Of a DNA stretch of 63,010 nt, positions 35,331 to 59,503 are shown one piece after another. How positions within the stretch are numbered: the stretch's first letter is position 1; every line of letters starts with the position of its first letter. The DNA is from a virus. Taxonomy: Duplodnaviria; Heunggongvirae; Uroviricota; Caudoviricetes. The translations under genes were made by a program, and so were the position numbers. Location: positions 276,278 to 339,287 of IMG/VR virus record IMGVR_UViG_3300028887_000002, one strand, 5' to 3'. A model generated the notes under the pieces. It was not told the DNA's origin, ran no database searches, and saw nothing but the letters and a program-made list of their open reading frames with translations.

Positions 35331-35348
35331 TGTACTCAAACGAGTACA
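35331..35348. repeat. 18-bp palindrome TGTACTCAAACGAGTACA, copy 1 of 9
   Basis: Exact copies at 35331, 35914, 38095, 39865, 42041, 43641, 45641, 48222 and 51745. Confidence 0.95.
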
Positions 35349-35503
35349 GGGGGTGGGGGTATATGTTTTATAGGGTTTTGCCTGTCGGGGGTGTAGGATA
35401 AAAAAAAATGACCGCCCCGAAAAAGAAAGGAGTAGTAAGTAAACGGGGTGGTCGGTGTTACTTTAATTAAAAATAAGATATTTATGGATAAAATTGTAGA
35501 TGC

Positions 35504-35767
35504 TTAGAGCAGTGCCACGGCAGACCAGAGGGCTGATGCAATAATTATCAGTATTATGAAACATCCCATATTGTTTATTCTGAGTGACGTTGGTTTTGAT
35601 GCGCGGGTATATACGTGCTTTATACCAAAGGCAATGAAAACAATCCAGAATATCAGTATTGCCGTTGTTGATATTGCGCCCGACAGGGCAAGCCAGTAAA
35701 TCCACATAGTCTTAAATCCTTTCGTTGTTATTAGACGATGCAAATATATATGTAATATTTCAAACAA
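35504..35767 (-). CDS. Small membrane protein (start uncertain)
   Basis: Two hydrophobic segments; downstream of -7 box 35741-35748, so probably starts at MWIYW. Confidence 0.45.
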   Translation of the reverse strand: MFEILHIYLHRLITTKGFKTMWIYWLALSGAISTTAILIFWIVFIAFGIKHVYTRASKPTSLRINNMGCFIILIIIASALWSAVALL

Positions 35768-36045
35768 CCAAACATTTTTTTATTTTTTTTTGTTATGGAC
35801 GTAAATTTTATGGGTATCAAAATAAGTAATGGGATTGTTGCTGGCGGCGATGAGGTGTATGGGGATATACTTTATATCATTTGATATGGGGATTTGAAAC
35901 TACACTATAAAAATGTACTCAAACGAGTACAGGGGGGGTGGGGGTATCGCTGGGGAACGAAAAATGCAGTTCATATAAAGTGAAGGAAAAATTCCCATAG
36001 GGATTTTTGAAAAAGTGTGTATTTCGTATAAAAACGAGTAGATAC

Positions 36046-36084
36046 AAAAAAAACCTCCGACGGATTGGGGGTCGCTGTCGGAGG
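36046..36084 (-). terminator. Intrinsic terminator
   Basis: CCTCCGAC/GTCGGAGG stem with A8 on the + strand. Confidence 0.7.
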
Positions 36085-36137
36085 AAAAGACATAAGTAAT
36101 TAAATGAAACTAAAAAATGTGAAAAATGAGTGCGTTG

Positions 36138-36362
36138 TTAGTTGGTGTCCCTGTCCCTGCGGTGCTGTCTATACTGACGTAGGGCGAGGATGAATATTAC
36201 TGACAGGAGTATGTCGAACACTATTGTCACAGCGTAGAGCGTCCTAATACCCACCTGGGGGTTGCATTCAGGTCTGAACACCTGCCAGTTGATAAATGCT
36301 ATTGCAAGGAGGGGGATTATGAGTCCCGTAATCTCCATTATGCTTTCAAGTCTGTTTTCCAT
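36138..36362 (-). CDS. Small membrane protein
   Basis: Two TM-like segments, basic tail. Confidence 0.65.
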   Translation of the reverse strand: MENRLESIMEITGLIIPLLAIAFINWQVFRPECNPQVGIRTLYAVTIVFDILLSVIFILALRQYRQHRRDRDTN

Positions 36363-36363
36363 A

Positions 36364-36858
36364 TTAGTCGTTGCTGTCTATTGTTATTCCGTTCTGCTGA
36401 AGTTCCTCAGGGGTTGCGAGGCGATAATGGCCGTCGATGATAATCGTCGGGTGGATGTCTTCGGTATCATTGCACATTGGTGCGTTGCTGGTTTGGAAAG
36501 TGTAGTATAATAGCACCCCGCGTAGCACAATGTCCTTTATCTGGAATATCGTTCCGTTATCATCCTTCCTGACAATCCAGTCGCCCTTCTTGAACTTGAC
36601 TAAGGGTTGCGGGACTGGTGCCACGCGGTCGGAACAGATAACTAGGTCATCTACGAACTTGTTGAGACTATTTTCCTCCCCGCGTAGTGTGTACAACTTA
36701 TGTGCATATATACCTAGTAGGCATAACAGGCAGAATATGTTGACGCACAGGATTACCATGGCTGGTGCTGAGACTGGGATTAGCATTAGTGTTATGTTGA
36801 AATTGATGTTCCCTATAATCATCAGGAGCATTATTATTAAGTCTGTCTTGTTGTTCAT
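36364..36858 (-). CDS. Membrane protein with KFKKGDWIV...YRLAT.EE module
   Basis: Module shared with 47104, 54671 and 57138. Confidence 0.7.
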   Translation of the reverse strand: MNNKTDLIIMLLMIIGNINFNITLMLIPVSAPAMVILCVNIFCLLCLLGIYAHKLYTLRGEENSLNKFVDDLVICSDRVAPVPQPLVKFKKGDWIVRKDDNGTIFQIKDIVLRGVLLYYTFQTSNAPMCNDTEDIHPTIIIDGHYRLATPEELQQNGITIDSND

Positions 36859-37043
36859 AGTACGATAATTCCTTTCTTATTTTTCAGATGTTGCAAATAT
36901 ATGTTTTATTTCTGAGACTGGCAAGAAAAAAGTTTAATAATTTATGAGTGGAAGTTTTGCGGCGCTATCAGAGGAGAATTCTTGATTCGCAATAATAGTT
37001 TTATTCACTTTGGCGATATCTTTCTCCTTTCAATTTATTTGAA

Positions 37044-37466
37044 TTATTGATTTGGTTCGCCAAACCCGCACGACAACATTTTCTTGCAGGCGTTGTCGTA
37101 TGCAGCCATGAATTCCTCCTTTGTGATTTCTTGCAGCATATCAGATTCGATGTACGAATAGTCCTGTGTGTGGTCGAGATGGACTTCGTTGTTGTGGGAA
37201 TCAAACCTGAAACAGATTCTATCACATACAAAATCGGCGCTATCATTGATATCTCTGACAAGGACATATTCTGTCCATATTTTAGAATCTTCTACAATCT
37301 TGAAGTACTTTCCGACGAATCTGTCGTGCAAGTCATTCCGTAAGAATTCATGGTATTCTTCCTTGGCTTCGTTGATTTGCCTGCCGATTCTGTCGAGTTC
37401 AGACTTCCGACCGTAATACATTTCTTCAAGTTCGGCGATTTTCGCCTTAAATTCGTTGCAGTCCAT
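37044..37466 (-). CDS. Hypothetical coiled-coil protein
   Basis: 140-aa ORF. Confidence 0.75.
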   Translation of the reverse strand: MDCNEFKAKIAELEEMYYGRKSELDRIGRQINEAKEEYHEFLRNDLHDRFVGKYFKIVEDSKIWTEYVLVRDINDSADFVCDRICFRFDSHNNEVHLDHTQDYSYIESDMLQEITKEEFMAAYDNACKKMLSCGFGEPNQ

Positions 37467-37486
37467 TTCTTTTCAATTTATTTGAA

Positions 37487-37684
37487 TTAATAATTTGGTT
37501 GTTTCATTCTTGTGTTCGCGATGAAGGACTTGTTGGAACCGTTCAGGGTTATTTCCCCGCATGGAACCCAGTCGCCGTTGGAATATACCTTCACCTTTGT
37601 GCCCTTACAGTTCTTCTGCTTCATCTGCTTCTTTGCTTCCGATAGGGAGAAGTATTCTTCCCCGTCAACATAATAGATTGTCAT
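37487..37684 (-). CDS. Small basic protein
   Basis: 65-aa ORF. Confidence 0.7.
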   Translation of the reverse strand: MTIYYVDGEEYFSLSEAKKQMKQKNCKGTKVKVYSNGDWVPCGEITLNGSNKSFIANTRMKQPNY

Positions 37685-37688
37685 GGTT

Positions 37689-38072
37689 CTATTCCTCCCA
37701 AGTTATTTTAACTGTTGTAATGTATTCTTTACCATCTTTACCGAGTTCTACTGCTTTTTCAAATGTGTCATGGATTAGACTACTAGTATATCTCATGTTT
37801 TTTTTGCCATATATATTTAGATATCCTTCATGCTTTTCGGTAGCCATCATAAGGTCTTCTCCATATTCACATATACCAAACCTGCCTTCGCCGAACTTGC
37901 CTTCATTAGTATAGTGGTAATGTTTTTCCACTCCATTGTATTCTACAAGAGCTACAATCGGAAACATGTTATTTGGGTTTTTCCTGTCGAAACATATAAT
38001 TCTCGCGTTTCTTCCGTCCCTTGTGCATACTGGGGTTCCTTGTTTTGCCAGTTCTAAGTCAAATGGTTTCAT
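37689..38072 (-). CDS. Bacteroidota-phage protein (MKPFDLE.AK.G.PV.TRDGR.ARIICFD)
   Basis: Recognisable recurrent phage motif. Confidence 0.8.
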   Translation of the reverse strand: MKPFDLELAKQGTPVCTRDGRNARIICFDRKNPNNMFPIVALVEYNGVEKHYHYTNEGKFGEGRFGICEYGEDLMMATEKHEGYLNIYGKKNMRYTSSLIHDTFEKAVELGKDGKEYITTVKITWEE

Positions 38073-38121
38073 AATCTTTCCTTTCTTTTAAAAATGTACT
38101 CAAACGAGTACATATGGTTTA

Positions 38122-38418
38122 TTATTCAATGGTTATCTCTCCGTTGCAGTATCTCACGAACCCCATCCGCTTTCCGTTGCTACCGTTCTCGTAGTAGAAC
38201 CTGTATGATAAAGACGGATGGTCTTCGAGCCATATGGGTTCCACGATTTTGCTTTCATTGGCGCTGATATATGGCGCATTATCCATGTATTTGAGAGTCA
38301 CGCCGTTCAATGTGACCTTCTGTGTTATAAGCGTGTCATCTATGTGGGTGGATACTAACACGCACTTTCCAGTCTTCTCAATGGCGTCCTTCAGTTCATT
38401 TAACTTTTCTTTTGTCAT
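38122..38418 (-). CDS. Hypothetical protein
   Basis: 98 aa; stop 10 nt from an 18-bp palindrome. Confidence 0.7.
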   Translation of the reverse strand: MTKEKLNELKDAIEKTGKCVLVSTHIDDTLITQKVTLNGVTLKYMDNAPYISANESKIVEPIWLEDHPSLSYRFYYENGSNGKRMGFVRYCNGEITIE

Positions 38419-38496
38419 ATGTCTTTTTTTAGTTTGTTAATGATGCAGCAAAATTAATAAGGATATTTCAATCCTGCAAGAAAAAAATAATTTATT

Positions 38497-38892
38497 TTAT
38501 TTTCGGCTGTTTCCGAAGAATTCCTCCCACCTCTCAATCGCCTGTGGGGATGCTGACCAGTTGTCCTGTCTGGAGAACCTTATGGAGTTTCCGTCCGTTG
38601 GTGACGGGGCAATCATTGTCCATCCCGCAGCCTCAAGGGTATGTATCGCTTCATCCTTCGTGTTGAAGGTTGTGTCGGAGTGGCATACGTTCAGCCAGTA
38701 CCACTTGTTTAGGTAGGATTCGTTGGGGATGATTTTCCATCCTTCATTGGTCTTCCGTACCTCGCAGGTATATGTTCGTGGCGATTGTTGCGATGCCCTT
38801 GCATGAAGCGAGGGTAGTATGTAGCCGTCCGCAAGGGTTACTAATGCGGCAAATAATAATGCCGTTAGGAATAATGCTTTTCTTACACTCAT
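38497..38892 (-). CDS. Secreted/membrane-anchored hypothetical protein
   Basis: Signal-peptide-like N-terminus. Confidence 0.7.
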   Translation of the reverse strand: MSVRKALFLTALLFAALVTLADGYILPSLHARASQQSPRTYTCEVRKTNEGWKIIPNESYLNKWYWLNVCHSDTTFNTKDEAIHTLEAAGWTMIAPSPTDGNSIRFSRQDNWSASPQAIERWEEFFGNSRK

Positions 38893-38896
38893 AGTT

Positions 38897-39166
38897 TTAT
38901 AAGTTCATTATGTTGATAATCTGTGATATTTCAGCCGTTGTGGGGGTTTCGCCCTTTACTTGGGCGTTATAAGCCTTGAGGAACTGTCCGTACTGCTCGT
39001 AGGTGTACTTGTGTTCGTTTAGGCATTCGTTAAGCCTTTCAAATGCGGTGAAACCAATAACACCATCGTTGGGGGATGTTGATAGTATCTTGTCGGTCTC
39101 AGCCTTAATTGAGACCATTGTGTCGTAGTCCTTTCGTGTGAATCTATTTTTCTTTTCCTTTGCCAT
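38897..39166 (-). CDS. Hypothetical protein
   Basis: 89-aa ORF. Confidence 0.7.
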   Translation of the reverse strand: MAKEKKNRFTRKDYDTMVSIKAETDKILSTSPNDGVIGFTAFERLNECLNEHKYTYEQYGQFLKAYNAQVKGETPTTAEISQIINIMNL

Positions 39167-39170
39167 ATTA

Positions 39171-39470
39171 TTATTTTAGTATAATGTTTTCCATCTCCTT
39201 GCTGAATATGGGCATATACTCTTTAAGGAATATGCCGTATATGTCCTCGTTCTCCCTTTCGCACACCTCAAAGCATTCGTCAAGCAGACGCTCGTATAAC
39301 ATTGCTTCATCACTTGTAAGGTTCATTTCCTTCAGTTGTCCCTCCGTCAAGACGGCAAGGGAATCGTCTGGGTGGATGATGATATGCCGTTCAAACAGCA
39401 CATAGTGAAAGAATTCCTTTACCTCATCGGTGGTTGTGATATGCGAATCGTTTGTGTATGTGTAGTTCAT
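39171..39470 (-). CDS. Hypothetical protein (I.T.DEVKEFF.Y...ER...HPDD)
   Basis: 99-aa ORF. Confidence 0.75.
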   Translation of the reverse strand: MNYTYTNDSHITTTDEVKEFFHYVLFERHIIIHPDDSLAVLTEGQLKEMNLTSDEAMLYERLLDECFEVCERENEDIYGIFLKEYMPIFSKEMENIILK

Positions 39471-39487
39471 AGTTAGTCCTCCTCGTT

Positions 39488-39748
39488 TTAATCATTATAG
39501 AATTCCAACTTAATTGTCGTGTGTACACCTTTATAATATAGGCAATTATCAACCACGCCAATTCGTGGGAAGTCTTTGTAGACAACAGTCCCTCTGTTGT
39601 TGCCCCGCAAATCGTATTCAACATCCACTATAGGATGCCAAACTTTGAAGTCGTCATTAATCCGAAGGATTGCCCTATCTATTTCAGCATAGTCTTTGCA
39701 TTCGCTCAGTTCCTTTGCATACATATGTGCTTTTTCTGTCTTGTTCAT
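39488..39748 (-). CDS. Hypothetical protein, cassette-driven
   Basis: 86 aa, follows promoter core 39809-39823. Confidence 0.7.
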   Translation of the reverse strand: MNKTEKAHMYAKELSECKDYAEIDRAILRINDDFKVWHPIVDVEYDLRGNNRGTVVYKDFPRIGVVDNCLYYKGVHTTIKLEFYND

Positions 39749-39888
39749 AATATTTCCCTTTCTTTTTTAAAACGTTTGACATTCACATAGGCATATATAA
39801 CACCCCAGAAACTGATACGTTCAAAATTGAAACGTCAGTTTCTTGGGGAGGTGCAGTTTTTTTTTGTACTCAAACGAGTACAAGGGGG

Positions 39889-40707
39889 CTATTCTTCGTA
39901 GAAATCGTAGAGACCGATGACCTTTCCTTCGGAGTTGATTACCTTGTCGTATATGAAGGCATAGGCGTTTCCGCTTTCAAGTTCGTAGCCTTTCAACGGG
40001 TGGTCGAAGTCAAGTTCGCCATTGTCCTTTTCGGTGTAGAAGTCTTCGTGCATATCGTAGTTCCAAATCTCACCGCTACAAGTCTTGGTATAGTCTCCGT
40101 CATAGTAGTTGTAGTACTGGCTGCAACCAGACTGGTGGAGTTCACAGAATTCGTATTCGTCTTCGGAATCATAGAATATGTTGTTTTCACAATCAATCAC
40201 GATGTCTTCAGGAGCAATGTTTTTGAGGTCGGGAAGCCACAAACCTTCCTTAACGGCACGGTTAATGACATTGAGGTCACGATTGTTGAAGTTCCCCTCA
40301 ATGAACTGCTCGAACTGTTCCCTTGCAAGGTCGTAGTCATAGTAGTCCTCGCAGGCTGGGTCGTCAATAAGAAGGACTGAGTTGCGTATCTCTGGCTTTG
40401 TGTTCGGCTCGTACATTTCAAGCCTATAGTAGCCACTCATTGCTTGATTCATACGGAAGGCAATGTGGTCTCTCTTGTAGTCTTCAAATTCAAGGTTGTA
40501 GTCGGCGATGTTCTCGTAGGTGTCAATAGTCTCCCCATTCTCATCGTCAATATGACATATCACCCTATAAGGCTTTCCATCGTGTTCGTGTACGAATTTT
40601 GATGCGTATTCGCAAGCATCGTTGATGTTTTCAAAGTCCTTTGATGTATAGACCTTGCTTTCATTGTCTGTCCAAACTTTGTACTTCATAATAATTTCTC
40701 CTTTCAA
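39889..40707 (-). CDS. Acidic hypothetical protein
   Basis: ORF; start probably 40689. Confidence 0.8.
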   Translation of the reverse strand: MKGEIIMKYKVWTDNESKVYTSKDFENINDACEYASKFVHEHDGKPYRVICHIDDENGETIDTYENIADYNLEFEDYKRDHIAFRMNQAMSGYYRLEMYEPNTKPEIRNSVLLIDDPACEDYYDYDLAREQFEQFIEGNFNNRDLNVINRAVKEGLWLPDLKNIAPEDIVIDCENNIFYDSEDEYEFCELHQSGCSQYYNYYDGDYTKTCSGEIWNYDMHEDFYTEKDNGELDFDHPLKGYELESGNAYAFIYDKVINSEGKVIGLYDFYEE

Positions 40708-40716
40708 ATAATAGTT

Positions 40717-41010
40717 TTATTCGCTTTTTGCGTATGTGAAAATCTTTAGAATTTCATTCTTGTTAATTCTCTTGAGCAATCCTACGATAGTGTATGTCTT
40801 TGGCACTACCGAATGCGGTTGCGACCAAACAAGAAAGTCCTTGCCGTCCAATCGTTCCTTTGCAAGGTGATAGCCGTACTGCCAATCGTGAAGGGGTTGT
40901 AGGACGGTGTATCTATCTTTGAGTTCGGTATTGCGCCATTGAATTATTTCTTCAACGCTCTTGTTGGCTTGTGCCTCAAACAATCTTATCGTTTCTTCCT
41001 TTGTTCTCAT
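40717..41010 (-). CDS. Hypothetical protein
   Basis: 97-aa ORF. Confidence 0.75.
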   Translation of the reverse strand: MRTKEETIRLFEAQANKSVEEIIQWRNTELKDRYTVLQPLHDWQYGYHLAKERLDGKDFLVWSQPHSVVPKTYTIVGLLKRINKNEILKIFTYAKSE

Positions 41011-41076
41011 AGAAAATTCAGTTTTAATGTTCTACACCACACTATATAAGTCCCATGAAGCTGGAACGTTCAAAAT

Positions 41077-41502
41077 CTAAAGTGTTTCGTAAAAGTCTTC
41101 AAAGGCGGTTATCACAAAATCCTCTCCGTTGTCTGGCTCGGTCAACGTCAAGAGTTCATCAATACCATCGCAATAGAAGAAAATCTCGCCGTCTTCGTCT
41201 TCTTTTATATCAGTTGAGAGTTTGATTGGAACGTCAGACGGCTCTCCGCAGTCTTTCCAAACTATTTCAACACAAGCATAAAGGATTGGTTGTTTGTTGC
41301 CGACAAGTTCGTCATACCTATCCCTCATCTGCTTCTTGATGAGGTTTTGCTTTGCATCGTTTGAGGTTGCCATTTCAACTGCTTTCATTGCCACTTCATA
41401 CACACGATAGTTCATTTGTGCGTATTGTACTGGGTCGGAAACGTTTGCACATTCCTTGATTGCGTCCAATACTATCTGCTGTCTCTGTTCTTCACTCATC
41501 AT
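41077..41502 (-). CDS. Hypothetical protein with module M2 (IKL.TD...EDGEIFFYCDGIDEL..LT.P.N.EDF)
   Basis: C-terminal module shared with 50408. Confidence 0.8.
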   Translation of the reverse strand: MMSEEQRQQIVLDAIKECANVSDPVQYAQMNYRVYEVAMKAVEMATSNDAKQNLIKKQMRDRYDELVGNKQPILYACVEIVWKDCGEPSDVPIKLSTDIKEDEDGEIFFYCDGIDELLTLTEPDNGEDFVITAFEDFYETL

Positions 41503-41586
41503 AATAATACCCTTTCTATTTTAAGTTTAACATTTTCAATTACATAATATTATATAAGTTCCCCGAAGCTGATACGTTCAAAGTTG

Positions 41587-41970
41587 TTAAAACCGATAAT
41601 ATGATTTTTTGTATTCGGTTGTTGGGGTATAACCCTCTCGCTTGTAGTTTTTGAATTCACTAACGATATATGTGAAATCAACACAACCTTTGGGGTAACG
41701 GTATTCTTCGACAAAAATGTAATAGCCGTTTTCGTTTAGGACATCAAAGGCTGTCCGCATTTCTTCTTCGCTTGGGTATGTTCCCTTTTTATAGTTTGTA
41801 AATTCCTTTTTTTCTAAATTAACACAATCAAAATTTGCGTAAACTTTTGAGGAAATAAAATGTCCGCCTTTCAAAAAAGCATCAACAACTGCTTGCACAA
41901 CTTCCTTGCGTATTGGCGTTTCCAATAACTTTTCCTCGTTCGGGTTTCTCTTTATTACAATTCCTTCCAT
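41587..41970 (-). CDS. Hypothetical protein
   Basis: 127-aa ORF. Confidence 0.75.
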   Translation of the reverse strand: MEGIVIKRNPNEEKLLETPIRKEVVQAVVDAFLKGGHFISSKVYANFDCVNLEKKEFTNYKKGTYPSEEEMRTAFDVLNENGYYIFVEEYRYPKGCVDFTYIVSEFKNYKREGYTPTTEYKKSYYRF

Positions 41971-42065
41971 AATATAAATATTTTTAAGTTACACCAATCT
42001 ATATAACCTCCCCGAAGCTGATACGTTCAGTTTCGGAGGTTGTACTCAAACGAGTACAAAACTTT

Positions 42066-42686
42066 TTATTCCTCAATTCCGAGCCTCTTCTTCAGCACCC
42101 TCACTAATGCAATATCAACATCACCAGAGTGCCAATTATGCGGGTCAGCAGTTTCCTTCACATCTTCAGCAACCTCATCGCATATACAATATGCGATTGC
42201 TTGGGCATCCGAATACTCCATGATGTTGGAAAGCCTCTTGATAATCATGTCATCAATACCATCAATGCAGTCATCGGTCAGTTCAATGGTAAAGTCTTGT
42301 GTCCTTCCGTCATCAAAGTCCAATTGTATTGAAACATACAAGTTGTCCACATTCCTTATGAAACCCCAACCGCTTCCTTCAAACAATATGTAGTTGTCCT
42401 CGTGGAGGCGTTCCTTGAGATAGTGGTCAGTAAAATGTTCACTACCCATATTGATGATGGCGAGTGTGTCATCGCATTTTATGAACTTGGTCTTGTTCGG
42501 CTCAAGGTAGCGTGTAATAAGCATTCCTCCGTTGGGGATGTTTACATTCATCATCACATCCTCAATGATGCCTTCTTCATACTTGTATTTCTCTCCCCAA
42601 GTCTGGGAAAACCATTTGGCGTCTACAGCAAATGAAGGGTCTGTAATTGCACAACCCTTTTCAAATCTAAATCTCTTTTCTTCCAT
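42066..42686 (-). CDS. Hypothetical protein
   Basis: 206-aa ORF. Confidence 0.8.
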   Translation of the reverse strand: MEEKRFRFEKGCAITDPSFAVDAKWFSQTWGEKYKYEEGIIEDVMMNVNIPNGGMLITRYLEPNKTKFIKCDDTLAIINMGSEHFTDHYLKERLHEDNYILFEGSGWGFIRNVDNLYVSIQLDFDDGRTQDFTIELTDDCIDGIDDMIIKRLSNIMEYSDAQAIAYCICDEVAEDVKETADPHNWHSGDVDIALVRVLKKRLGIEE

Positions 42687-42729
42687 AATAATTCCCTTTC
42701 TATTTTAAATCATTTAACATTAGTGCCTA

Positions 42730-43023
42730 TTAGTCTTCGGTTGGCACATAGACCATTTTCTCTCCGTTGTAGGGAGAAAACATTTCGTCCGTGCATTCAC
42801 AGAACTCTGTTTCAACAGCAAATAGTCCATAACCCTCTTGATAATATATTTCAAGTTCAATCTCCGATTCAGTCACATATCTCTCTGCTTCTTCGGGGGT
42901 CATTCCTTGCTCAACCAATTCATTGACCTTGTGGTTAAAAGCGATTGGGTATTTATCCTTTGAAAGTTTTACATTGCAAAGGTGTTCATAATTGTCCGAA
43001 TTGTTAATTACAGTCTTTACCAT
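42730..43023 (-). CDS. Paralog family C (PIAF..KV.ELVE.GM..E.AE...ELEIYYQ.G.GLFAVET)
   Basis: Highly similar to 48621. Confidence 0.8.
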   Translation of the reverse strand: MVKTVINNSDNYEHLCNVKLSKDKYPIAFNHKVNELVEQGMTPEEAERYVTESEIELEIYYQEGYGLFAVETEFCECTDEMFSPYNGEKMVYVPTED

Positions 43024-43113
43024 TTTTTATCTCCTATTTTTAAATGTTTAACATTCAATTTACATAAATCTATATAACCCCCATGAAGCTGAAACGTTCA
43101 TTTTCGGGGAGGT

Positions 43114-43554: not shown

Positions 43555-43661
43555 TTCATTTAAGTTTCACATAAATTTATATAAGTCCCACGAAGCTGAA
43601 ACGTTCATTTTGGGAAGGTGTTGTTTCATATAAATCTATATGTACTCAAACGAGTACACAT

Positions 43662-43696: not shown

Positions 43697-43731
43697 CGTA
43701 ACATTAAACAACTTAAATTATTATGGTAGAA

Positions 43732-44847
43732 TTAGCAAGCAAGTAGGTAGTCGTAACCCTTTTGAACTTTCCTTGCGACATCACCATCAAGGATTGAGTT
43801 GTACTTGTCTTCTGCGGTAGTCCACTTCTTGTTGTTGCCGTAGAAAGTCGTGAGTCCGTTCAGCAGCCACAACTTTGTGCCACGATGTTCGTGCTGACCG
43901 ATGCCGTTCTCAATGGCATTCATAAGGTCGGTGATTTGGTTGCGCTTGCGTGTGGAGATTTCCTCAACACCATATGGGTTGCCGTTGTTCTGTTCAATGA
44001 GTTTCAATTCGGCTGGTGTGCAGAAGATTTGTGTGACGAACTTCATTGCATCGCTCTCGCTGATAGTCTGCGACCTCAACTTTGTCATATCCTCAATGAA
44101 CTGAGTCTTGTATCTCTTGTGCATCTCAAGGACTGCAACTGCTCGTTGCACATTCTCTTGGCGTTCCCAATCCAATCGGTCACCGACATTCTTTGTGTGC
44201 TTGAAGACGAGTTTGTTCTTTGCGCCCCTTAATGCCATGTTGAGAGTGTTCTGGCAAATGACACGAATTGGTGTGAACAAGCATTCAACCGCACCGCTAC
44301 CATCGTGGGTATTTGTAAAGAGAAGGTAGTCCGAAATACCATCGTTGTCTCCCTCAATGCGTATGTTTTCGGGGAGTTTTGCAGTTATATACATTCTTGC
44401 ACCTCCCTTTAGGATGCCCGCAGTCTCAATGATTGGTCTTTGTTCGCCACCGATTGAGCCGCTTGTCATAAGGTCGATGAACTCAAAGGCTTTGGTGTTT
44501 TGTACGACACCATAGTCAGCACCGACAACTCCCAATGTCTTGTTTGAGTCCATGCGGACGGTTGCCTTGTGCGAATCTATAAGGTTATCTGCTGACACCT
44601 CAAGGTCAAATGCCTCGTTGTTTCTTATCTTGGTTGCGATTTCGTCACTTACACGGAGAAGGCTCTGCTTCTCAACATTGTAGTTAGCACCAACGGCTTC
44701 TACTGCCTCGTTGATTGTTACGGGAGTGCTGAACGATTTGCAACCTTGAATACCTTGCCAAGCAACTGGCTGTGCAGCCGATACCTTGATGGTTGCTTCG
44801 TTGTTGTTAATAACCTCTGCTGTGTTCAAATTAATAATTCTTGCCAT
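43732..44847 (-). CDS. DUF932 / LGT_TIGR03299 phage-plasmid protein
   Basis: VR.D....LGVVG.DY..VQN..AF.F; YLLF.N.HDGSG....FTPIRVICQNTLN.AL. Confidence 0.85.
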   Translation of the reverse strand: MARIINLNTAEVINNNEATIKVSAAQPVAWQGIQGCKSFSTPVTINEAVEAVGANYNVEKQSLLRVSDEIATKIRNNEAFDLEVSADNLIDSHKATVRMDSNKTLGVVGADYGVVQNTKAFEFIDLMTSGSIGGEQRPIIETAGILKGGARMYITAKLPENIRIEGDNDGISDYLLFTNTHDGSGAVECLFTPIRVICQNTLNMALRGAKNKLVFKHTKNVGDRLDWERQENVQRAVAVLEMHKRYKTQFIEDMTKLRSQTISESDAMKFVTQIFCTPAELKLIEQNNGNPYGVEEISTRKRNQITDLMNAIENGIGQHEHRGTKLWLLNGLTTFYGNNKKWTTAEDKYNSILDGDVARKVQKGYDYLLAC

Positions 44848-44943
44848 AATAAAATAAATTTAAGTTTAACATTTATTCAATTTTCATATTAGTTTATAAG
44901 TCCCCCGAAGCTGATACGTTCATTTTCGGGGAGGTGTTTCATA

Positions 44944-45117
44944 TTATCCTATTTCCTCTGCTTCATAATCAGCATCAAGATATTCATCGTTGGGATTTTC
45001 ACCCCATTCATCGTCATCATATTCTTGTGCGATTTCTATTGCTTCGTCCTCGTTTTCTGCTTCTACCTCAATATATAAGGTGCGTGGCGGATACATCTTT
45101 GTTACTTGATACAACAT
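44944..45117 (-). CDS. Small acidic protein (EVEAENEDEAIEIA, DpnD/PcfM-like motif)
   Basis: 57-aa ORF below the track cutoff, between two cassettes. Confidence 0.7.
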   Translation of the reverse strand: MLYQVTKMYPPRTLYIEVEAENEDEAIEIAQEYDDDEWGENPNDEYLDADYEAEEIG

Positions 45118-45198
45118 TTTCTTGTCCCTTTCTTTTTTAAGTTTAACATAAATCTATATAAGTTCCCCGAAGCTGGAACGTTCATTTTCGGGAGGGAC

Positions 45199-45549
45199 TT
45201 ATTCATCGTCCCTCTCATCTTCGTCTTCGTCCTCTTCTTCATCTTCACCATCCTCACACCACCACCATTCCATAATCTCGTCATCAGTGCTTTCAATGAT
45301 TATTGACCACCATTGGTCGCTGATTTCTTCGTGGTTGAAATCATCAGCAAAATCTATCATATCAGCCAAGCGAGAACCATCGTTCAAACAATATACCTTG
45401 TGGATTGGTACATTTTTATCTATCAATGTCTTGATAGGATTGCTCTCATACGACAATTCCAAAGGTGCAATACCAAATACATCACTATCATCTCTTGCGT
45501 TCACATCGTAGAACACCAAATACTTCTTTGTGTTTTTCTTTTCGTCCAT
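45199..45549 (-). CDS. Very acidic hypothetical protein
   Basis: 116 aa, D/E tail. Confidence 0.75.
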   Translation of the reverse strand: MDEKKNTKKYLVFYDVNARDDSDVFGIAPLELSYESNPIKTLIDKNVPIHKVYCLNDGSRLADMIDFADDFNHEEISDQWWSIIIESTDDEIMEWWWCEDGEDEEEDEDEDERDDE

Positions 45550-45713
45550 AATAATATCTCCTATTTTTAATTGTTTAATCTTTTCAATTTACATAAATCT
45601 ATATAACCCTCCCGAAGCTGAAACGTTCACTTTCGGGAGGTGTACTCAAACGAGTACAATATAAGGGGAAACGAACCCTTTAACAAGTCCGTCCCCTTTG
45701 GCTGTTGGTAAGG

Positions 45714-46361
45714 TTAAGCATAATCGCCCTCAATTATATCCTTTTCGATTTCCTTGTAGGTGCGACCATCGTATTGCAGTGCGGTGTAGATTTCCATTGC
45801 CACTCCGTAAAGTTCGGCGGCGCAAACTCTATCAACTTCATACTCATAGCAATCCTCTGTGCAGAGTTCAACATTGCCGTTTTTGTCAAGGTGTACATCA
45901 ATTACATCGGAGAATGCATTTGAAGCATATTCGGGGTGATTGCCACCATCGTAGGTGACTGCAACGCAAATGTCAAGCACTTCAAAGTTGATTGTGCCGT
46001 TTTCCTCACAAAGTTTCTTGAGGTAGTCAAGGCTTTCGTCCCACAACTTTCTACCCAAGTCCATGAAACGGTTTCCAGTTTCCACAAAGGCTGGCTTTCG
46101 CTTGATGTCAGCCTTGTATAACAATTTTCGGTATTCCTTCTTGTTAAGACCGCAGAATGATTTGAGGTGTGTGCAAGTTGTATTACTCAACACATTTTCA
46201 ACTGCCAGAGGAATGAGGTCGCCATTTGCGGTGCGCTCAATTATTGGCGTGTTGTAACTATACAACACCTCGCTACCATTTTCCTTGCGTTCAACAAGTG
46301 CTTTGCCATAGAACGACTTGCGACCATTGGTCGGCATTAATTCTCTTACATTGTTTTTCAT
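45714..46361 (-). CDS. Two-module protein with C-terminal module M1 (VTYDGG.HPE..SNAF..V.DVHLD..GNVEL)
   Basis: M1 shared with the N-terminus of 50408. Confidence 0.8.
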   Translation of the reverse strand: MKNNVRELMPTNGRKSFYGKALVERKENGSEVLYSYNTPIIERTANGDLIPLAVENVLSNTTCTHLKSFCGLNKKEYRKLLYKADIKRKPAFVETGNRFMDLGRKLWDESLDYLKKLCEENGTINFEVLDICVAVTYDGGNHPEYASNAFSDVIDVHLDKNGNVELCTEDCYEYEVDRVCAAELYGVAMEIYTALQYDGRTYKEIEKDIIEGDYA

Positions 46362-46471
46362 GTCTATTCCCTTTCTATTTTTAATTGTTTAATCTTTTCA
46401 ATTTACATAAATCTATATAACCCTCCCGAAGCTGAAACGTTCACTTTTGAGGAATAGGTTGTTTTATAATT

Positions 46472-46846
46472 TTATATTTCAAAATTATATTGGCTTTCGT
46501 ATGGTGCAAGCGTCATATGGATATATGCCTTTTGCGCACCCCATTCATTGAGGAATCTTTCAAGCCTATGTAAATAATATTCTTTGTTGTATGAATGATT
46601 CCAAGTTTGTGTTTCATCGTCATAAATATCATCATGACTGTCCCAACCATGCGAACCAGTACGATATAACACTTTGCCGTCTTTCAGTTCAATGTAGCAA
46701 GTGTAATATACGTGATGCGGTGCATCGCACTTAATGGTTTTTGTGTAACTGCGTTCAATCGCATGGGGGTAGGTCGCTTTGATGTATTCAACCACCTTGT
46801 GAAAGTTTGATTTCAATAGTTCCTCATACTTGCTAATGTTTTCCAT
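46472..46846 (-). CDS. Hypothetical protein
   Basis: 124-aa ORF. Confidence 0.75.
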   Translation of the reverse strand: MENISKYEELLKSNFHKVVEYIKATYPHAIERSYTKTIKCDAPHHVYYTCYIELKDGKVLYRTGSHGWDSHDDIYDDETQTWNHSYNKEYYLHRLERFLNEWGAQKAYIHMTLAPYESQYNFEI

Positions 46847-46947
46847 AATATTACCCTTTCTATTTTTTAAGTTATTTAATTATTTCGTTTCACATAAATC
46901 TATATAAGTTGATGAAAGCTGGAACGTTCAAAATCCATAGGTTGCTT

Positions 46948-46987
46948 AAAAAAAATCCCGACAAAATAAAATAATTTCATCGGGATT
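46948..46987 (-). terminator. Intrinsic terminator
   Basis: AATCCCGA/TCGGGATT stem with A8 on +. Confidence 0.65.
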
Positions 46988-47103
46988 GATAACAAAAAAA
47001 CAACTTAAATTATTATGGATAAAGTATTTACATTTTAAAAACCCCCAAAGGACATTAGGTAGTCCGATGGGGGAAAAAGTAATATAAATGAACGATTAGA
47101 GAA

Positions 47104-48129
47104 TTACCAAGTCTTGTATTTGCCGTTGTAGTTGCTTGTCGTACCTATCAGATGTGCAGTCTCGCTATTGTAGGGGATGCATTGTTCCCAATATACACCA
47201 CCACAAGTGACATATTGATAGCCATTATTATCTGTCGGTATATGGCTGAAAAAGTCGGCAATCCAAGTGCAACTTTCATCGTCCCTTACAAGTACCTTGT
47301 CAAAGGGCATGAGGTCGGTTTTTGCAAAGGTGTATTCCTTTTCCTTTGTGGAAATATCCTTGTCATTGTCAATGCTCTCAATGGTTGCAGCACCGAGACT
47401 TTCAAAAGTGTATACACCATTTTCAATTTCAATTATCTTCTCATATTCGCCATTTCTTGATAAAGGACCTATAGTATCTCCCACATTGTACTTGTGGCGT
47501 GCTTGATAGTATTGCTTTATTTCTTCATCGGTTGCAAGACGGAAATCGCCATTAATGTCAAGATATTCTATATCATCCTCCTTGTCATCGCTGGTAATGT
47601 ATTTACCATCTCTTATGTCGGTTATTTGGAATAGGATTAGTTTGTCAGAATTTAACCCATAACGCTTAATACTATCAATTGATATGAGATAGTCTCCGAC
47701 ATTGTATTTGGGGTACTCCACTTTTACCTCATTTATTATCTTGAGTTCCCAATCTTCTGCAAGGTGATATTCCTCGCTATAGTCAAGGTCATCAATCTTT
47801 TCATACTCGCCATCGCTACACTCGTATTCACCATCATCGGTTATACCTACTATGGCAAAGTTAACTTCTATGTTGTCGTTGGAGATAAGAACATCGCCAA
47901 CCTTGTATTTGGGTTGCGGTGTGGTAGGGTTGTCTTCTTCAACATCGCCGTCAAGAATTACTTCTTCTTCAGCATAGTCTGCCGTTGCTTCACCAAAGTC
48001 CCAATTAATGCAGTCAACATTTTCATATAGTTTGTTTTGTGCAATGTCAAGTGCTTCAAAGCTATTTTCAGCATCAACGAACATTATGCCGTTGTGTATC
48101 ATCGTACACGTCACAATAAACCTTTTCAT
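47104..48129 (-). CDS. Modular protein: EVEAE-like N-terminus, three KY(K/N)VGD repeats, PFDKVLVRD C-terminal module
   Basis: 341 aa with visible internal repeats. Confidence 0.8.
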   Translation of the reverse strand: MKRFIVTCTMIHNGIMFVDAENSFEALDIAQNKLYENVDCINWDFGEATADYAEEEVILDGDVEEDNPTTPQPKYKVGDVLISNDNIEVNFAIVGITDDGEYECSDGEYEKIDDLDYSEEYHLAEDWELKIINEVKVEYPKYNVGDYLISIDSIKRYGLNSDKLILFQITDIRDGKYITSDDKEDDIEYLDINGDFRLATDEEIKQYYQARHKYNVGDTIGPLSRNGEYEKIIEIENGVYTFESLGAATIESIDNDKDISTKEKEYTFAKTDLMPFDKVLVRDDESCTWIADFFSHIPTDNNGYQYVTCGGVYWEQCIPYNSETAHLIGTTSNYNGKYKTW

Positions 48130-48239
48130 CTCTATCCCTTTCTATTTTAATTAGTTTAACATTTTCAATTTACATCATATTATATAACCCTCCCGAAGCT
48201 GAAACGTTCATTTTCGGGAGGTGTACTCAAACGAGTACA

Positions 48240-48587
48240 TTAGAATTCGTCATCCAAATCGTCTCCGTAGTCAACATCGTAGTCAACAATCTCGTTGTAG
48301 CAGTCGTTGTTTTCGTGTACCTCAAATTCAATTGGGGTGTCAACGACAATCGTTGCAATATGATTTACGCCTACTCTCCGTTCAATAGTAGCCCATTCTT
48401 CGCTGTTGTCAGCAGAACGGATTTCATACTTGAAAAGACCTTCGGGGATATCGTTATCGGCAATGCGTTCATCAGTAAAGAACGCTTCAATCGTTGTTTC
48501 CTTGCAGTTTGCCTTGTAGGTGATTTCGCACTTGTGCAAATCGTGGTTGCAGACGAAATCGGGCATTTCAAAAAATAAGTTTCTCAT
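48240..48587 (-). CDS. LPD28-like (large polyvalent protein domain 28) protein
   Basis: AFFTDERI....IPEGLFKYEIR..D......TIE..V.VNH..TI. Confidence 0.6.
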   Translation of the reverse strand: MRNLFFEMPDFVCNHDLHKCEITYKANCKETTIEAFFTDERIADNDIPEGLFKYEIRSADNSEEWATIERRVGVNHIATIVVDTPIEFEVHENNDCYNEIVDYDVDYGDDLDDEF

Positions 48588-48620
48588 GGTATTTCCCTTT
48601 CTTTTTTTTTATTGTTATTA

Positions 48621-48899
48621 TTATTCAAGTCTTGCAACATCGCCATTGTAGGGAGACATAATTTCCTCGCAGTTCTCAACGATATCAGTTTCAACTGCAA
48701 AAAGTCCCCAACCTTGTTGATAGTAGATTTCAAGTTCAAATTCAGTCTTGGAAACAAACTTTTCTGCGTCCTCAACACTCATACCCTCTTCTACAAGTTC
48801 GTCAACCTTGTTTTGAAACGCAATCGGTGTCTTTTCCTTTGATAACTTGAAAGCACCGATGCTTTCATACTGGTTGTAATGATTTAATTTAAATTTCAT
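48621..48899 (-). CDS. Paralog family C protein
   Basis: Highly similar to 42730. Confidence 0.8.
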   Translation of the reverse strand: MKFKLNHYNQYESIGAFKLSKEKTPIAFQNKVDELVEEGMSVEDAEKFVSKTEFELEIYYQQGWGLFAVETDIVENCEEIMSPYNGDVARLE

Positions 48900-49002
48900 A
48901 GTTTTATTGTTTTATTGGTTATACTTCTTGTTTCGTTTCGCATAAATCTATATAAGTCCCCCGAAGCTGAAACGTTCATTTTCGGGGGACGTGATTTAAT
49001 GT

Positions 49003-49482
49003 TTATTCATCTTCTTTTTTTATTCTTCTGCAAGTTTCCTTTACTTCATCAAGGATTGGTGTTAGGTCGCTTGACACTTGTTGTGGTGTAAAGAAAACTT
49101 TGTCATCAACCCACAAGCAAATGCTCGGAGTCCATTCCTTTTCGTTAATATAAGCCTTATGGTATGATATGCCACCTATTTCATACGGCTTTCCGTCAGC
49201 AAGGACGATAACCCTATCGTAAAGGTCAAACTCGGTATCACCGATTTTTTCCAACATATTTGCAATCTCTTCCGCTTGTTTCTTTATTATGTCGGATAAA
49301 GCAGAATCAACAACAACCCCATTCATTTCGCATTCGGGGTCGCTACATTCCTCAAGATTGTCCACCAACTGCGAACCGCTGTCAGTTTGGTATGCAATCT
49401 CTATTGCTTCTGCCTCGTTTTTTGCGACAACATCAATATCACAATAGGTGTGATAAAATAATCTTACTGTGTACCTCTTCAT
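49003..49482 (-). CDS. Hypothetical protein with V.A.NE.EAIEIA N-terminal module
   Basis: 159-aa ORF. Confidence 0.75.
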   Translation of the reverse strand: MKRYTVRLFYHTYCDIDVVAKNEAEAIEIAYQTDSGSQLVDNLEECSDPECEMNGVVVDSALSDIIKKQAEEIANMLEKIGDTEFDLYDRVIVLADGKPYEIGGISYHKAYINEKEWTPSICLWVDDKVFFTPQQVSSDLTPILDEVKETCRRIKKEDE

Positions 49483-49558
49483 ACTAATTCTATTTTAATT
49501 GTTAAACATCTGTTTGCGTTTCACATAAATCTATCTAACCTTTCGGAAGCTGAAACGT

Positions 49559-49858
49559 TCAGTTTCCTATTGGGTTATGAAATGTGAAAACTAACTCGCT
49601 CGGACAACTACCATCATTCCTTACGAAATGTGCCGACCTCAACAAATCCTTGTGTTCTGCAACAAACTTGTCCAAGACCTTCTGCGGAAAGTGTCTCTTA
49701 TCGTTAGTTTTCAATTGGACTTCAATTGTCCTTGACCAAACGGTTATCGGACAACATTCCGTCACACTACCACTTGTCCAAGAGTTGTATTGGATATGTT
49801 TTCCGAATGCAACTTGAATGTCCCTGATAGTTTCGGTTATTCTTCTTTCTAATTCCAT
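49559..49858 (-). CDS. Hypothetical protein
   Basis: Start MELERR; TGA stop lies inside promoter core 49547-49561. Confidence 0.7.
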   Translation of the reverse strand: MELERRITETIRDIQVAFGKHIQYNSWTSGSVTECCPITVWSRTIEVQLKTNDKRHFPQKVLDKFVAEHKDLLRSAHFVRNDGSCPSELVFTFHNPIGN

Positions 49859-49999
49859 AAAATTGTTTTTAAGTTTCACATAAATCTATATAACCCCCAA
49901 AAAGCTGGAACGTTCATTTTCGGGAGGGGGAAAATAAAAAAAAATAGGGGCAACCGAATGAACGATTGCCCCATCATCAGTTAAACTATTAAAATATAG

Positions 50000-50398
50000 T
50001 TAAGGGAAATATGTTCTTACCATTTGGTTAAGCCGTTCCTTGTTGGTGTATCTTGAACCCTCAATGGTACTGGTCGGATTGGTTTCGTAGTAACCGCACC
50101 AATCAATAGTGTTTTTCAAGTCCTTAAAAACAGCCTTGAACATTATGCCGTTGGCTATTGAATGCCTTGCAGTTTTCAGCATAAGCATAAATAGGTCTGG
50201 CTTGGTCGTGCGCAATGAGAATGAAATTATATTGTCTTCATTTACCGCCAAATTATCTAACTTGACATATTTGGGAGTTAAGGTTGGCAATGCCTTTATT
50301 AAATTGTTTGCAGTCCCAACCTTGACAATTATTTTCATATTTAACCACTTTGCACCTCTTGGCACAAAGCCTTCAAGATTTATCTTTTTGCGTCCCAT
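50000..50398 (-). CDS. Basic hypothetical protein
   Basis: 132-aa ORF. Confidence 0.7.
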   Translation of the reverse strand: MGRKKINLEGFVPRGAKWLNMKIIVKVGTANNLIKALPTLTPKYVKLDNLAVNEDNIISFSLRTTKPDLFMLMLKTARHSIANGIMFKAVFKDLKNTIDWCGYYETNPTSTIEGSRYTNKERLNQMVRTYFP

Positions 50399-50407
50399 AA
50401 GCCAGCC

Positions 50408-51043
50408 TTAAAGTTTTTCACTAAAACTATCAAACCCGACTACCACAAAATCCTCCTTGTTGTAGGGATTCGTCAACTTCTTGAGTTCATCAATCCCATC
50501 GCAGTAGAAGGTGATTTCATCATCCTCGTCAGACACCACATCGGTATTCAACTTGATGGTGGCAAGGCTGAATTCGCTATCTTCCATATCATCGTCATTC
50601 CACCTAATGAATACATTGGCAAAAGTTGGCTCAAAGATATGCTTTGCCTTGTATTCGTCATATTCCTTCTGCAAGGTTTCACGCAACTTCTTGGGATAAT
50701 CAATGTGTTCCAAGTAACTATGGATGTGATAGGCAATGCTGTACAATTCACCGACATCACATATGCGGTAGGTTTCATAGTGTTCGTCTTCCTCAATTGC
50801 AAGTTCAACGTTACCTTCTTCGTCAAGGTGAACATCATACACTTGTGCAAAGGCATTGCTATTCCGTTCAGGATGTCCTCCGCCATCGTATGTGACAACA
50901 ACATAAAGGTCAGCATCTTCCAACGAGAACGTGCCGTTATTCTCCTCGCATACCTTCTTGAGATAAGCAATGGTTTCTCTCTTTAACGACTGCGAAATCA
51001 CTTCATATCCCTTTCCGATTTCCAAAAATCTCTCACTTTTCAT
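50408..51043 (-). CDS. Fusion of modules M1 and M2
   Basis: N-half like 45714 C-half; C-half like 41077 C-half. Confidence 0.8.
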   Translation of the reverse strand: MKSERFLEIGKGYEVISQSLKRETIAYLKKVCEENNGTFSLEDADLYVVVTYDGGGHPERNSNAFAQVYDVHLDEEGNVELAIEEDEHYETYRICDVGELYSIAYHIHSYLEHIDYPKKLRETLQKEYDEYKAKHIFEPTFANVFIRWNDDDMEDSEFSLATIKLNTDVVSDEDDEITFYCDGIDELKKLTNPYNKEDFVVVGFDSFSEKL

Positions 51044-51108
51044 AATCTTACTTTTTATTGGTTAAACGTTTCACATTATACTATATAACCCTCCCGAAGC
51101 TGAAACGT

Positions 51109-51648
51109 TCAAAATCCCCAAGTGCTTTTGCAAAAATTAATGTTCTTGGAATAGTGTGAATTCGTCCATAATATGTTGTGTACCTCTTCCTCACTTCTTT
51201 TGTCATCAAGGTTATAATTCCATTTATTATAATGCCTAATTCCATCTTCAGTCACCTCCTTGACTACCCAATGGTCGCACCCATCGTGGTGGTAGCCTTT
51301 AACGTGGAATTCGCCATAGCCGCCCTTGTTCACCTCATATATTTCAAAGTCCCAATAGTCATCGTGCGCCCAAGCCTTCCTTACACCATCATAGCCGTAA
51401 ACCAACTTACCGCCTTTAAACTTTCCATCCCATAGTCCGCACTCGCCAACGATAAGGTATGCCTTTCCGTCCTTGAAGAACGACTTCAATTCCTCTCTTA
51501 CGATATCCCAATCGCTATCGATTAGGTTGTCGATTTCACATTTTATTTCATCGTCAGTCGGGAATGCAATACCCTCTTCCCTTTTCAAGAGTTCAATTGC
51601 GTCATCCCTATAGGATTTCTTATCCCTTGTGCTAAAAATGTTTCTCAT
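51109..51648 (-). CDS. Hypothetical protein (GLWDG...H...HHDG)
   Basis: 179 aa; TGA stop lies inside promoter core 51097-51111. Confidence 0.8.
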   Translation of the reverse strand: MRNIFSTRDKKSYRDDAIELLKREEGIAFPTDDEIKCEIDNLIDSDWDIVREELKSFFKDGKAYLIVGECGLWDGKFKGGKLVYGYDGVRKAWAHDDYWDFEIYEVNKGGYGEFHVKGYHHDGCDHWVVKEVTEDGIRHYNKWNYNLDDKRSEEEVHNILWTNSHYSKNINFCKSTWGF

Positions 51649-51749
51649 ATGTCCTATATTTTATTGGTTTTTACATAAATCTATATAAGATATAAAAAGC
51701 TGAAACGTTCATTTTCGGGAGGTGTTGTTTCACATAAATCCATATGTAC

Positions 51750-51938
51750 TCAAACGAGTACATACTTGCGTTTTCCGTACTCTCCGCTTGCGTAGATGGT
51801 ACAATATGATATCTCCTTGAATTCGCCTCTCCTAATCATATCCTTGATTTCAAGGTCTCTTTCCATTGCACCATTAACTATTGTAGTATCCTTCATACCA
51901 TCTTTCCAAGTCCAATATAATGCGTATCTCATCGCCAT
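51750..51938 (-). CDS. Small hypothetical protein
   Basis: 62 aa; last codons and stop are encoded by the 18-bp palindrome. Confidence 0.65.
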   Translation of the reverse strand: MAMRYALYWTWKDGMKDTTIVNGAMERDLEIKDMIRRGEFKEISYCTIYASGEYGKRKYVLV

Positions 51939-59500: not shown

Positions 59501-59503
59501 TTT

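Follow-up and report, generated by a model that had tools for sequence, protein, structure and literature searches.

A palindrome kept unchanged at gene boundaries of huge gut and rumen phages, possibly an operator read in duplex DNA

What reads an 18-bp palindrome that recurs, letter for letter, nine times among the small genes of one phage genome, and what would be gained by reading it? The question is raised by a stretch of 63,010 nucleotides (nt), here called the window, which comprises bases 276278-339287, the final 63 kb, of a virus record of 339,287 bp (IMG/VR IMGVR_UViG_3300028887_000002; Caudoviricetes). An initial annotation of this window had described the palindrome, TGTACTCAAACGAGTACA, and offered four explanations for it: a recombinase crossover site, a parS-like or DNA-anchoring site, a dimeric repressor operator, or an RNA processing hairpin with a GUUU loop. 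The pattern of variation that we find across a whole family of related phages leads us to favour the third. Tentatively, and at somewhat less than an even chance, we read the palindrome as a duplex-DNA operator for a dimeric phage protein, which would serve as a conditional block to transcription, or an insulator, in a manner similar to the stoperators of mycobacteriophages.

The count itself is firm. A pattern search returned nine exact, co-oriented copies of TGTACTCAAACGAGTACA on the plus strand of the window, starting at 35331, 35914, 38095, 39865, 42041, 43641, 45641, 48222 and 51745, in full agreement with the initial annotation, and a search of the window that allowed up to three mismatches added no further site. 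Dinucleotide-preserving shuffles contained on average 0.04 matches, and none of 100 shuffles reached nine. Extending the count to the whole record yields the same nine copies and no others; at up to four mismatches just two extra matches appear, both unrelated. (The 127-bp terminal repeat of the record resembles an assembly overlap.) The genes of the palindrome region lie on the minus strand, and on this sense strand the motif reads TGTACTC-GTTT-GAGTACA. Both in the window and in the related contig L011 the sites are spaced at about 2 kb with a coefficient of variation of 0.38 (P<=0.006 against random placement). An apparent avoidance of the half-sites TACTC and GAGTA, at about 0.4 of expectation under a model of independent, identically distributed bases, was dropped as a feature of the genome: under a maximal-order Markov model it is gone, with ratios of 0.9-1.2.

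How strictly is the sequence kept when genomes diverge? A homologue search with the DUF932 protein of the region led to six ENA contigs (L011-L016), and an exact scan of metagenome contigs for the 18-mer added Ga0265298_10002415 (L025, L045, L049), L026 and L052. The aligned DNA of these close relatives is 66-97% identical to the window, mostly 70-90%, and each of them has 8-10 exact copies of the 18-mer, always in gene orientation. At seven orthologous site sets (window, L011, L025/L045/L049, L052) the pairwise identity within the palindrome amounts to 396 of 396 positions, while the adjoining 15-nt flanks agree at 69% on the upstream side and 65% on the downstream side; flank identity to the close relatives spans 65-89%. 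The palindrome is a sharply bounded island of complete conservation. Because it is fully identical while its flanks have drifted to 65-69%, the whole site is under strong purifying selection as a specific recognition sequence. A copy with three mismatches in L015 (10663-10680) shows T-to-G changes directly after a poly-C run in a strain that elsewhere matches L011 at 99.8%; the probable cause is an error of sequencing or assembly, not decay. No analogous repeated palindrome was found in the palindrome-free relatives L017-L021, searches for related loci with a protein of 341 amino acids (aa) and with ThyX returned no relatives, and the exact 18-mer in IMG/VR gave two single matches, which is the chance level.

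More distant phages carry the site in altered form. Several metagenome contigs with a single match turned out to be real relatives, with scattered ORFans common to the window region and to each other, and these bear further copies with the altered centres GATT, ATTT and AATT. A degenerate scan of IMG/VR, followed by whole-record searches of five huge-phage records of 211-380 kb (G001-G005), revealed the pattern GTACTC-N4-GAGTAC at 5-10 sites in each, compared with 0 for a reversed-pattern control. In each record the sites are clustered in one region of 27-39 kb that has DUF932 and other ORFans in common with that of the window. The 18-mer is this lineage's form of a 16-18 bp site, (T/G)GTACTC-N4-GAGTAC(A/C), which huge phages of the gut and rumen, a family with genomes of 200-380 kb, place at transcription-unit boundaries within a single small-ORFan region of 16-40 kb, a hyperplastic and probably early region.

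It is the manner in which this site varies that is most informative. The arms GTACTC and GAGTAC are identical in all of the roughly 100 copies, although the phages range from 24 to 42% GC; in 247 kb of family sequence no compensatory stem variant was seen. The 4-bp centre takes at least 11 forms (GTTT, GATT, ATTT, AATT, AAAT, GAAT, AATC, AACT, AACC, TACC and GACT), is A/T-rich across the family, and is often the perfectly symmetric AATT. On the sense strand it is T-rich in the window clade, L042, L044 and L051 and A-rich in G002-G005, while G001 shows both orientations of the centre within a single co-directional gene array. In G001 the outer pair has also switched symmetrically, from T..A to G..C. 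From the invariant loop and orientation within the window, the initial annotation had argued for a directional site. This argument falls, since the centre varies, is often symmetric and can face in both directions with respect to the genes. A variable loop and random orientation in relatives had been named beforehand as the observation that would count against directionality, and the family displays both.

What kind of reader would impose such a pattern? Invariant arms of 6-7 bp around a variable, A/T-rich and often symmetric centre, together with the symmetric change of the outer pair and the indifference to orientation, point to a duplex operator read by a dimer. The centres of the two arms, or half-sites, lie one helical turn apart, and a dimeric protein would read the duplex with one 6-7 bp half-site per subunit. 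We infer that this protein is encoded by the phages, because phages of 24-42% GC share the site and host genomes match it only at chance level: a scan of 596 Gb of prokaryote genomes returned 20 single exact matches to the 18-mer where about 17 are expected by chance, none of them in Bacteroidales, so the palindrome does not stem from a repeat of host genomes. The literature searched had nothing relevant on the motif.

The positions of the sites suggest what a bound protein might do. In the order of transcription along the minus strand, the first copy in the window (51745-51762) overlaps the end of the open reading frame (ORF) 51750-51938, its final four codons and its stop, where it encodes Y V L V and the stop, as had been correctly noted; a 22-nt spacer resembling a promoter box and then a promoter/stem-loop module come after it. 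The second (48222-48239) lies 0 nt past the TAA of ORF 48240-48587, which has an LPD28 domain, and abuts a module at 48164-48221. The third (45641-45658), which has orthologues in L011, L025 and L052, is found 55 nt past ORF 45714-46361, behind a hairpin at 45663-45698, and abuts the module 45583-45640. Downstream of the DUF932 gene, the fourth (43641-43658) starts 3 nt past the T-tract of a canonical intrinsic terminator immediately upstream of it (43662-43695, minus strand; GC stem and T7), and is followed by a box at 43619-43640 and a module at 43561-43618. The fifth (42041-42058), 7 nt past ORF 42066-42686, abuts the module 41983-42040, and the sixth (39865-39882), 6 nt past ORF 39889-40707, is followed by A8, an extra hairpin and the module 39777-39834. 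The seventh (38095-38112) is operon-internal: it lies 9 nt past ORF 38122-38418 and 22 nt ahead of the ATG of ORF 37689-38072, with T5 after it and no promoter between. The last two are placed in C-rich non-coding DNA. One (35914-35931, then T5) stands 114 nt downstream of a second canonical intrinsic terminator (36046-36084, minus strand; GC stem and T8), which ends a five-gene unit, and upstream of a host-type promoter at 35741-35772; the other (35331-35348, then T7) is upstream of the ThyX gene (34350-35234).

Some generalisations of the initial annotation need adjusting in the light of these positions. The upstream stop is 0-9 nt away at five sites and 55 and 73 nt away at two, both of which have another hairpin or terminator in between, while the preceding ORF lies about 155 nt from 35331 and about 205 nt from 35914. 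The upper limit of about 70 nt therefore does not hold. A place just upstream of a cassette promoter is true of six of the nine, three of which abut the module directly and two of which are separated from it by a 22-nt copy of the promoter box; 38095, 35914 and 35331 have no module. Similarly, the lack of a U-tract applies to six copies, which are followed by CCTCCC, TATAG or A8, but not to those same three, which have T5-T7. In the other lineages examined, no consistent T-run was seen after the palindrome. The hairpin that it could form (7-bp stem with 3 G-C pairs, 4-nt loop, -7.7 kcal/mol) is much less stable than the phage's own canonical terminators, at 43662-43695 and 36046-36084. The view that it is not a plain intrinsic terminator stands. 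The palindrome is not an unconditional terminator either, because some sites are operon-internal and one is found 1 nt ahead of a tRNA gene.

The wider family repeats and extends this arrangement. Most sites lie 0-13 nt past a stop codon, and they are commonly 39-67 nt upstream of a -7 promoter box, a distance that is exactly 49 nt at two sites in G001. In L051, L036, L029 and L190 a conserved element of the form TTAAC-N4-TTTAAC / TTAAAAG-N-TGTTAAAGG is observed between the palindrome and a canonical TTTG...TAnnTTTG promoter. Canonical terminators adjoin the sites on either side: at 43641, L011:11206, L011:2431, L025 and L049 the site comes directly after the T-tract of such a terminator, in L029, L030 and L048 it is placed inside the loop of the terminator hairpin, and at L011:4008 and in L025 it sits atop an extended stem. 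Some sites in L042, G002, G004 and G005 separate convergent genes, so that there is no gene downstream for them to act on. At 38095, L052:1947, L033 and L011:4008 there is no room for a downstream promoter, and in L011 a tRNA-Trp(CCA) gene (5884-5974) starts 1 nt past the palindrome. Behind the orthologous palindrome of L025 there is a promoter module in its place, and the tRNA of L011 looks like an inserted module that depends on read-through. Since a gene or tRNA without room for its own promoter lies downstream of some sites, transcription must pass these, and any block must be conditional.

Boundary positions combined with the need for read-through fit a conditional block or insulator, which would control the accessory-gene cassettes in the manner of a stoperator. 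The bound protein would stop or insulate transcription across the boundary, and possibly tune the adjacent promoter; without it, RNA polymerase would read through, and the sites would be tolerable inside operons and 1 nt before a tRNA. A side effect would be that gene modules are exchanged at these exact repeats, as at the promoter/stem-loop modules. The site itself, its exact conservation, its pattern of variation across the family and its boundary positions are observed directly; the reading at the DNA level, the nature of the protein and its blocking function we infer.

Several observations weigh against such an operator. Among about 50 ORFs of the window, of which about 40 belong to the region, Pfam recognises no DNA-binding domain, and it finds no HTH_3 protein in six genomes, namely this one and the five related records; no integrase was found in these phages, so that one would not expect a repressor of the lysogeny type. 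In the window clade the centre is no less invariant than the arms, which would be surprising for a spacer that is not contacted, unless gene conversion homogenises the copies; a reading specific to this clade, or gene conversion, may be the reason. Many sites hug the upstream stop codon, as RNA elements of 3' untranslated regions do. Furthermore, variants affecting a single arm preserve a G.U or U.G wobble on the sense strand more often than not (about 11 vs 3), as an RNA hairpin would, although these events are not independent and a coding-strand C-to-T mutation bias could give the same pattern. Two metatranscriptome runs over the region consisted only of low-complexity pieces and fragments of relatives, and are uninformative on transcript ends.

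In the search for a reader, one protein family was considered. Its members, of 160-195 aa, have invariant GLWxG and HHDG motifs and no Pfam match, and occur in seven site-bearing lineages that share little else (window 51109-51648, minus strand; L011 3427-3978; L190 5024-5533; L191 10016-10603; L033 831-1349; L042 2988-3473). As a candidate reader this 179-aa family (GLWNGR, HHDGTN) was set aside: it co-occurs with the site in the seven lineages, with a site-lacking control of two contigs, but is unlike a DNA binder. Looking up the 174-aa and the 179-aa protein in the Atlas added no usable information.

Might the site be read as RNA rather than as DNA? This is the main rival, and a serious one, although we consider it unlikely. 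It holds that a specific protein or nuclease, of phage or host origin, binds a hairpin transcribed at the ends of cassette mRNAs and would define or protect 3' ends or process polycistronic early transcripts, including the release of a downstream tRNA. The distance of 0-13 nt from the upstream stop in many lineages would suit this, as would the copies in terminator-hairpin loops (L029, L030, L048) or atop extended stems (L011:4008, L025), and the weak excess of wobble-preserving variants, about 11:3 from non-independent events. The copies inside operons, and the one that stands 1 nt ahead of tRNA-Trp, could likewise be places of processing rather than of termination. The λ boxB and the histone mRNA stem-loop are similar in build, with a stem of 6-7 bp, a loop of 4-5 nt and a position shortly past the stop; their specificity resides in the loop and the closing pair, while here the loop varies and the stem is fixed. 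In RNA hairpins read by proteins the loop is generally conserved and the stem covaries. The family shows the reverse, with at least 11 tetranucleotides in the loop, in either orientation, every stem base fixed and no compensatory change in about 100 copies, and the proposed GUUU-loop processing hairpin finds no support in this comparison. In addition, several copies follow just past the T-tract of strong terminators, where little RNA should arrive, the copies at convergent junctions are perfect palindromes, and the stem is too short for RNase III.

A different set of observations concerns recombination. L011 and L013, about 99% identical, differ by the gain or loss of a 795-bp unit that consists of a 214-aa gene and a palindrome. 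At a crossover site, gene gain and loss should break inside the 18-mer. The indel junction in L013, however, lies inside the core of the neighbouring promoter module, where the left and right copies share GAACGTTCCAGCTTC, 12-28 nt from the palindrome: this one recent, visible indel used the module and not the 18-mer. Tyrosine and serine recombinases (PF00589, PF00239) had no match in the six genomes, in searches that control genomes did match, and tyrosine-recombinase sites have an overlap of 6-8 bp, longer than the 4-bp centre seen here. With the recent junction elsewhere, no recombinase found and so short a centre, the proposed recombinase crossover site is not supported, and nor is an integron attC site.

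Older mosaic boundaries do coincide with the edges of the palindrome. Downstream of site 45641, four lineages continue with four different sequences from its 3' edge, and upstream of 38095, three lineages have three different genes that end at its 5' edge. Could the palindrome be nothing but a joint, an exact repeat without a regulatory reader that provides microhomology, or a target for an unknown enzyme, in module shuffling as has been proposed for the PeSL modules of T4-type phages? We regard this as improbable. The exact breaks in homology at 45641 and 38095 are what it predicts, as is the tRNA gene joined 1 nt from the palindrome edge in L011; moreover, one centre is usually common to all copies in a genome, as expected from copy-and-paste or gene conversion, and neighbouring sites in G001 share their centres in pairs. 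Against it stand the sole recent event, which joined in the GAACGTTCCAGCTTC core and away from the palindrome, the lack of tyrosine and serine recombinases in the six genomes, and the presence of a Y1 transposase in this genome only. Microhomology would also leave unexplained why the same arms are found in phages that have no nucleotide similarity and differ by 18 GC points. A combined version, in which one protein both gates transcription and catalyses or targets the exchange of units at the site, as an integron-like 'cassette platform' with an enzyme other than an integrase, has in our estimate little chance of being right.

Insertion sequences are another conceivable source of repeated hairpins. 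The window encodes an intact IS200/IS605 Y1 transposase TnpA (61960-62313, plus strand; E 6e-42) and a broken second copy (59408-59530, minus strand), and the genome has several tnpB genes, including those at 16913-18235 and 5171-6925. A REP/RAYT element or an IS200/IS605 end hairpin was rejected, given that Y1_Tnp is found at 61960-62313 of this genome and not in G001-G005, the flanks of the copies are unrelated, and no palindrome-like sequence is present at the insertion elements. At a convergent junction in L042 (8911-10148), a palindrome is found 23 nt from the end of a TnpB (OrfB_IS605) gene, and TnpB is the sole protein common to this contig and our genome. A link between TnpB and the palindrome was likewise rejected, as the copies in this genome have no such palindrome, and the adjacency is read as insertion beside a site. 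Neither is the CRISPR repeat of the phage's Cas-lambda array a source, the sequences being unrelated.

Also doubtful is the idea that the palindrome is a promoter-type element, at which a hairpin of the N4 kind, or an activator site for a phage sigma factor, directs initiation just downstream. At least five sites are 19-36 nt upstream of a start codon without another promoter, one is 1 nt before a tRNA gene, a TATAGATTTAT box often comes directly after the palindrome, the same box as after the stem of the promoter module, and the genome has one gene of the sigma-70 family. However, copies between convergent genes have nothing to transcribe, one copy overlaps a stop codon and others occupy terminator loops; symmetric sites centred on AATT would fire both ways, and the distance to the -7 box is not fixed but ranges over 39-67 nt. 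As for a dedicated polymerase, a multisubunit RNA polymerase was not detected in this genome, and a T7-like one (PF00940) had no match either, in a search that matched no control genome and hence does not show absence. Least credible of all is the idea that a ParB-family protein binds the sites as a parS-like centromere or as a cluster that anchors DNA. About 5-10 palindromic sites within 5-10% of the genome are reminiscent of bacterial parS, the ParB_N protein of G001 lies inside its site cluster, and of the two ParB-superfamily candidates named initially 33086-33712 does encode a protein of the ParB-like superfamily (DUF262/GmrSD_N). However, the other candidate, 900-2078, has no Pfam match, ParB_N (PF02195) is present only in G001 and was not found in this genome (G000) or in the complete G005, the sites keep strictly to gene boundaries, which parS does not require, and the searches run turned up no integrase and no plasmid-type maintenance genes.

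The surroundings of the nine sites have features of their own. They comprise a 20-kb stretch of about 45 small minus-strand ORFs, nearly all without a Pfam family; those recognised are DUF932, LPD28, ThyX and the DUF262/GmrSD_N protein. Fifteen copies of the promoter/stem-loop module are spread over 32645-52602 on the minus strand, six of them after a palindrome. Each has a covarying stem of about 9 bp, with compensatory changes between copies, around the core GAACGTWTCAGCTT, and then a TTATATAGATTTATGT box, after which come a leader and the start codon. A scan of IMG/VR with the module core gave no matches. Canonical Bacteroidota promoters (TTTG, about 19 nt, TAnnTTTG) and terminators with a GC stem and a T-tract are also present in the region. 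The interval 33750-36130 is largely non-coding and about 87% conserved in relatives. Its strands differ strongly in composition, with a GC skew of +0.23 and poly-C tracts on the minus strand. Besides two of the palindromes it has a strong terminator and two canonical Bacteroidota promoters, and it could encode a non-coding RNA or be a regulatory hub upstream of thyX.

Are there known systems of this kind? The KorB OB sites of RK2 and the C1 operators of P1 each comprise about 10-20 intergenic copies of one operator at varying distance from promoters. They are read by KorB, a ParB-family protein, and by C1, and neither reader has a counterpart among the proteins found here. For the proposed operator, the closest likeness is to the stoperators of cluster A mycobacteriophages, whose repressors halt elongation at more than 20 intergenic sites (PMC9283540). 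The L5 gp71-type repressor likewise has many copies of a short specific site, intergenic at gene ends and near promoters, and elongation would in both cases be stopped only when the protein is present (PMC9283540). Stoperators differ in being asymmetric sites of 13 bp that are read by a monomer, in one orientation only, in temperate phages (PMC9283540). The palindrome has a centre that points either way, occurs in phages in which no integrase was found, and has a reader that is only putative. What it shares with stoperators is the presence of many copies at intergenic unit boundaries; the asymmetry and the orientation tied to transcription are not found.

The modules, in turn, recall the PeSL (promoter-early stem-loop) cassettes of T4-type phages, which are also repeated intergenic modules in a hyperplastic region of small ORFans with gene gain and loss at the modules (PMC2839356, PMC4122927). 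Our 15-copy module resembles these in sequence organisation and behaves like them, including the crossover inside it. The PeSL stem-loops are sequence-variable terminators based on structure. The 18-mer, by contrast, is a separate invariant unit that occurs with or without the promoter module and is kept across phages that have no nucleotide similarity. The palindrome is an added component beside the PeSL-like module, not a PeSL, because it has no promoter of its own and there is no module at 38095, 35914 and 35331. New here are the variation pattern that favours a reading at the DNA level, the refutation of directionality, the test on an indel, and the searches that found no tyrosine or serine recombinase in six genomes and no ParB_N in this one.

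In huge phages, small genes that change fast fill large regions of the genome; many of them probably function in counter-defence or host takeover, and the control and reshuffling of these regions are poorly understood. One unchanged site across phages of 24-42% GC would imply a conserved reader protein that has so far not been described, and offers a precise bait for it, either as an 18-bp duplex or as an RNA hairpin. The site is also a sequence marker for the accessory-gene region in new huge-phage genomes. If its reader is indeed a conditional transcription block, the stoperator principle would extend from temperate mycobacteriophages to lytic giant phages of Bacteroidota.

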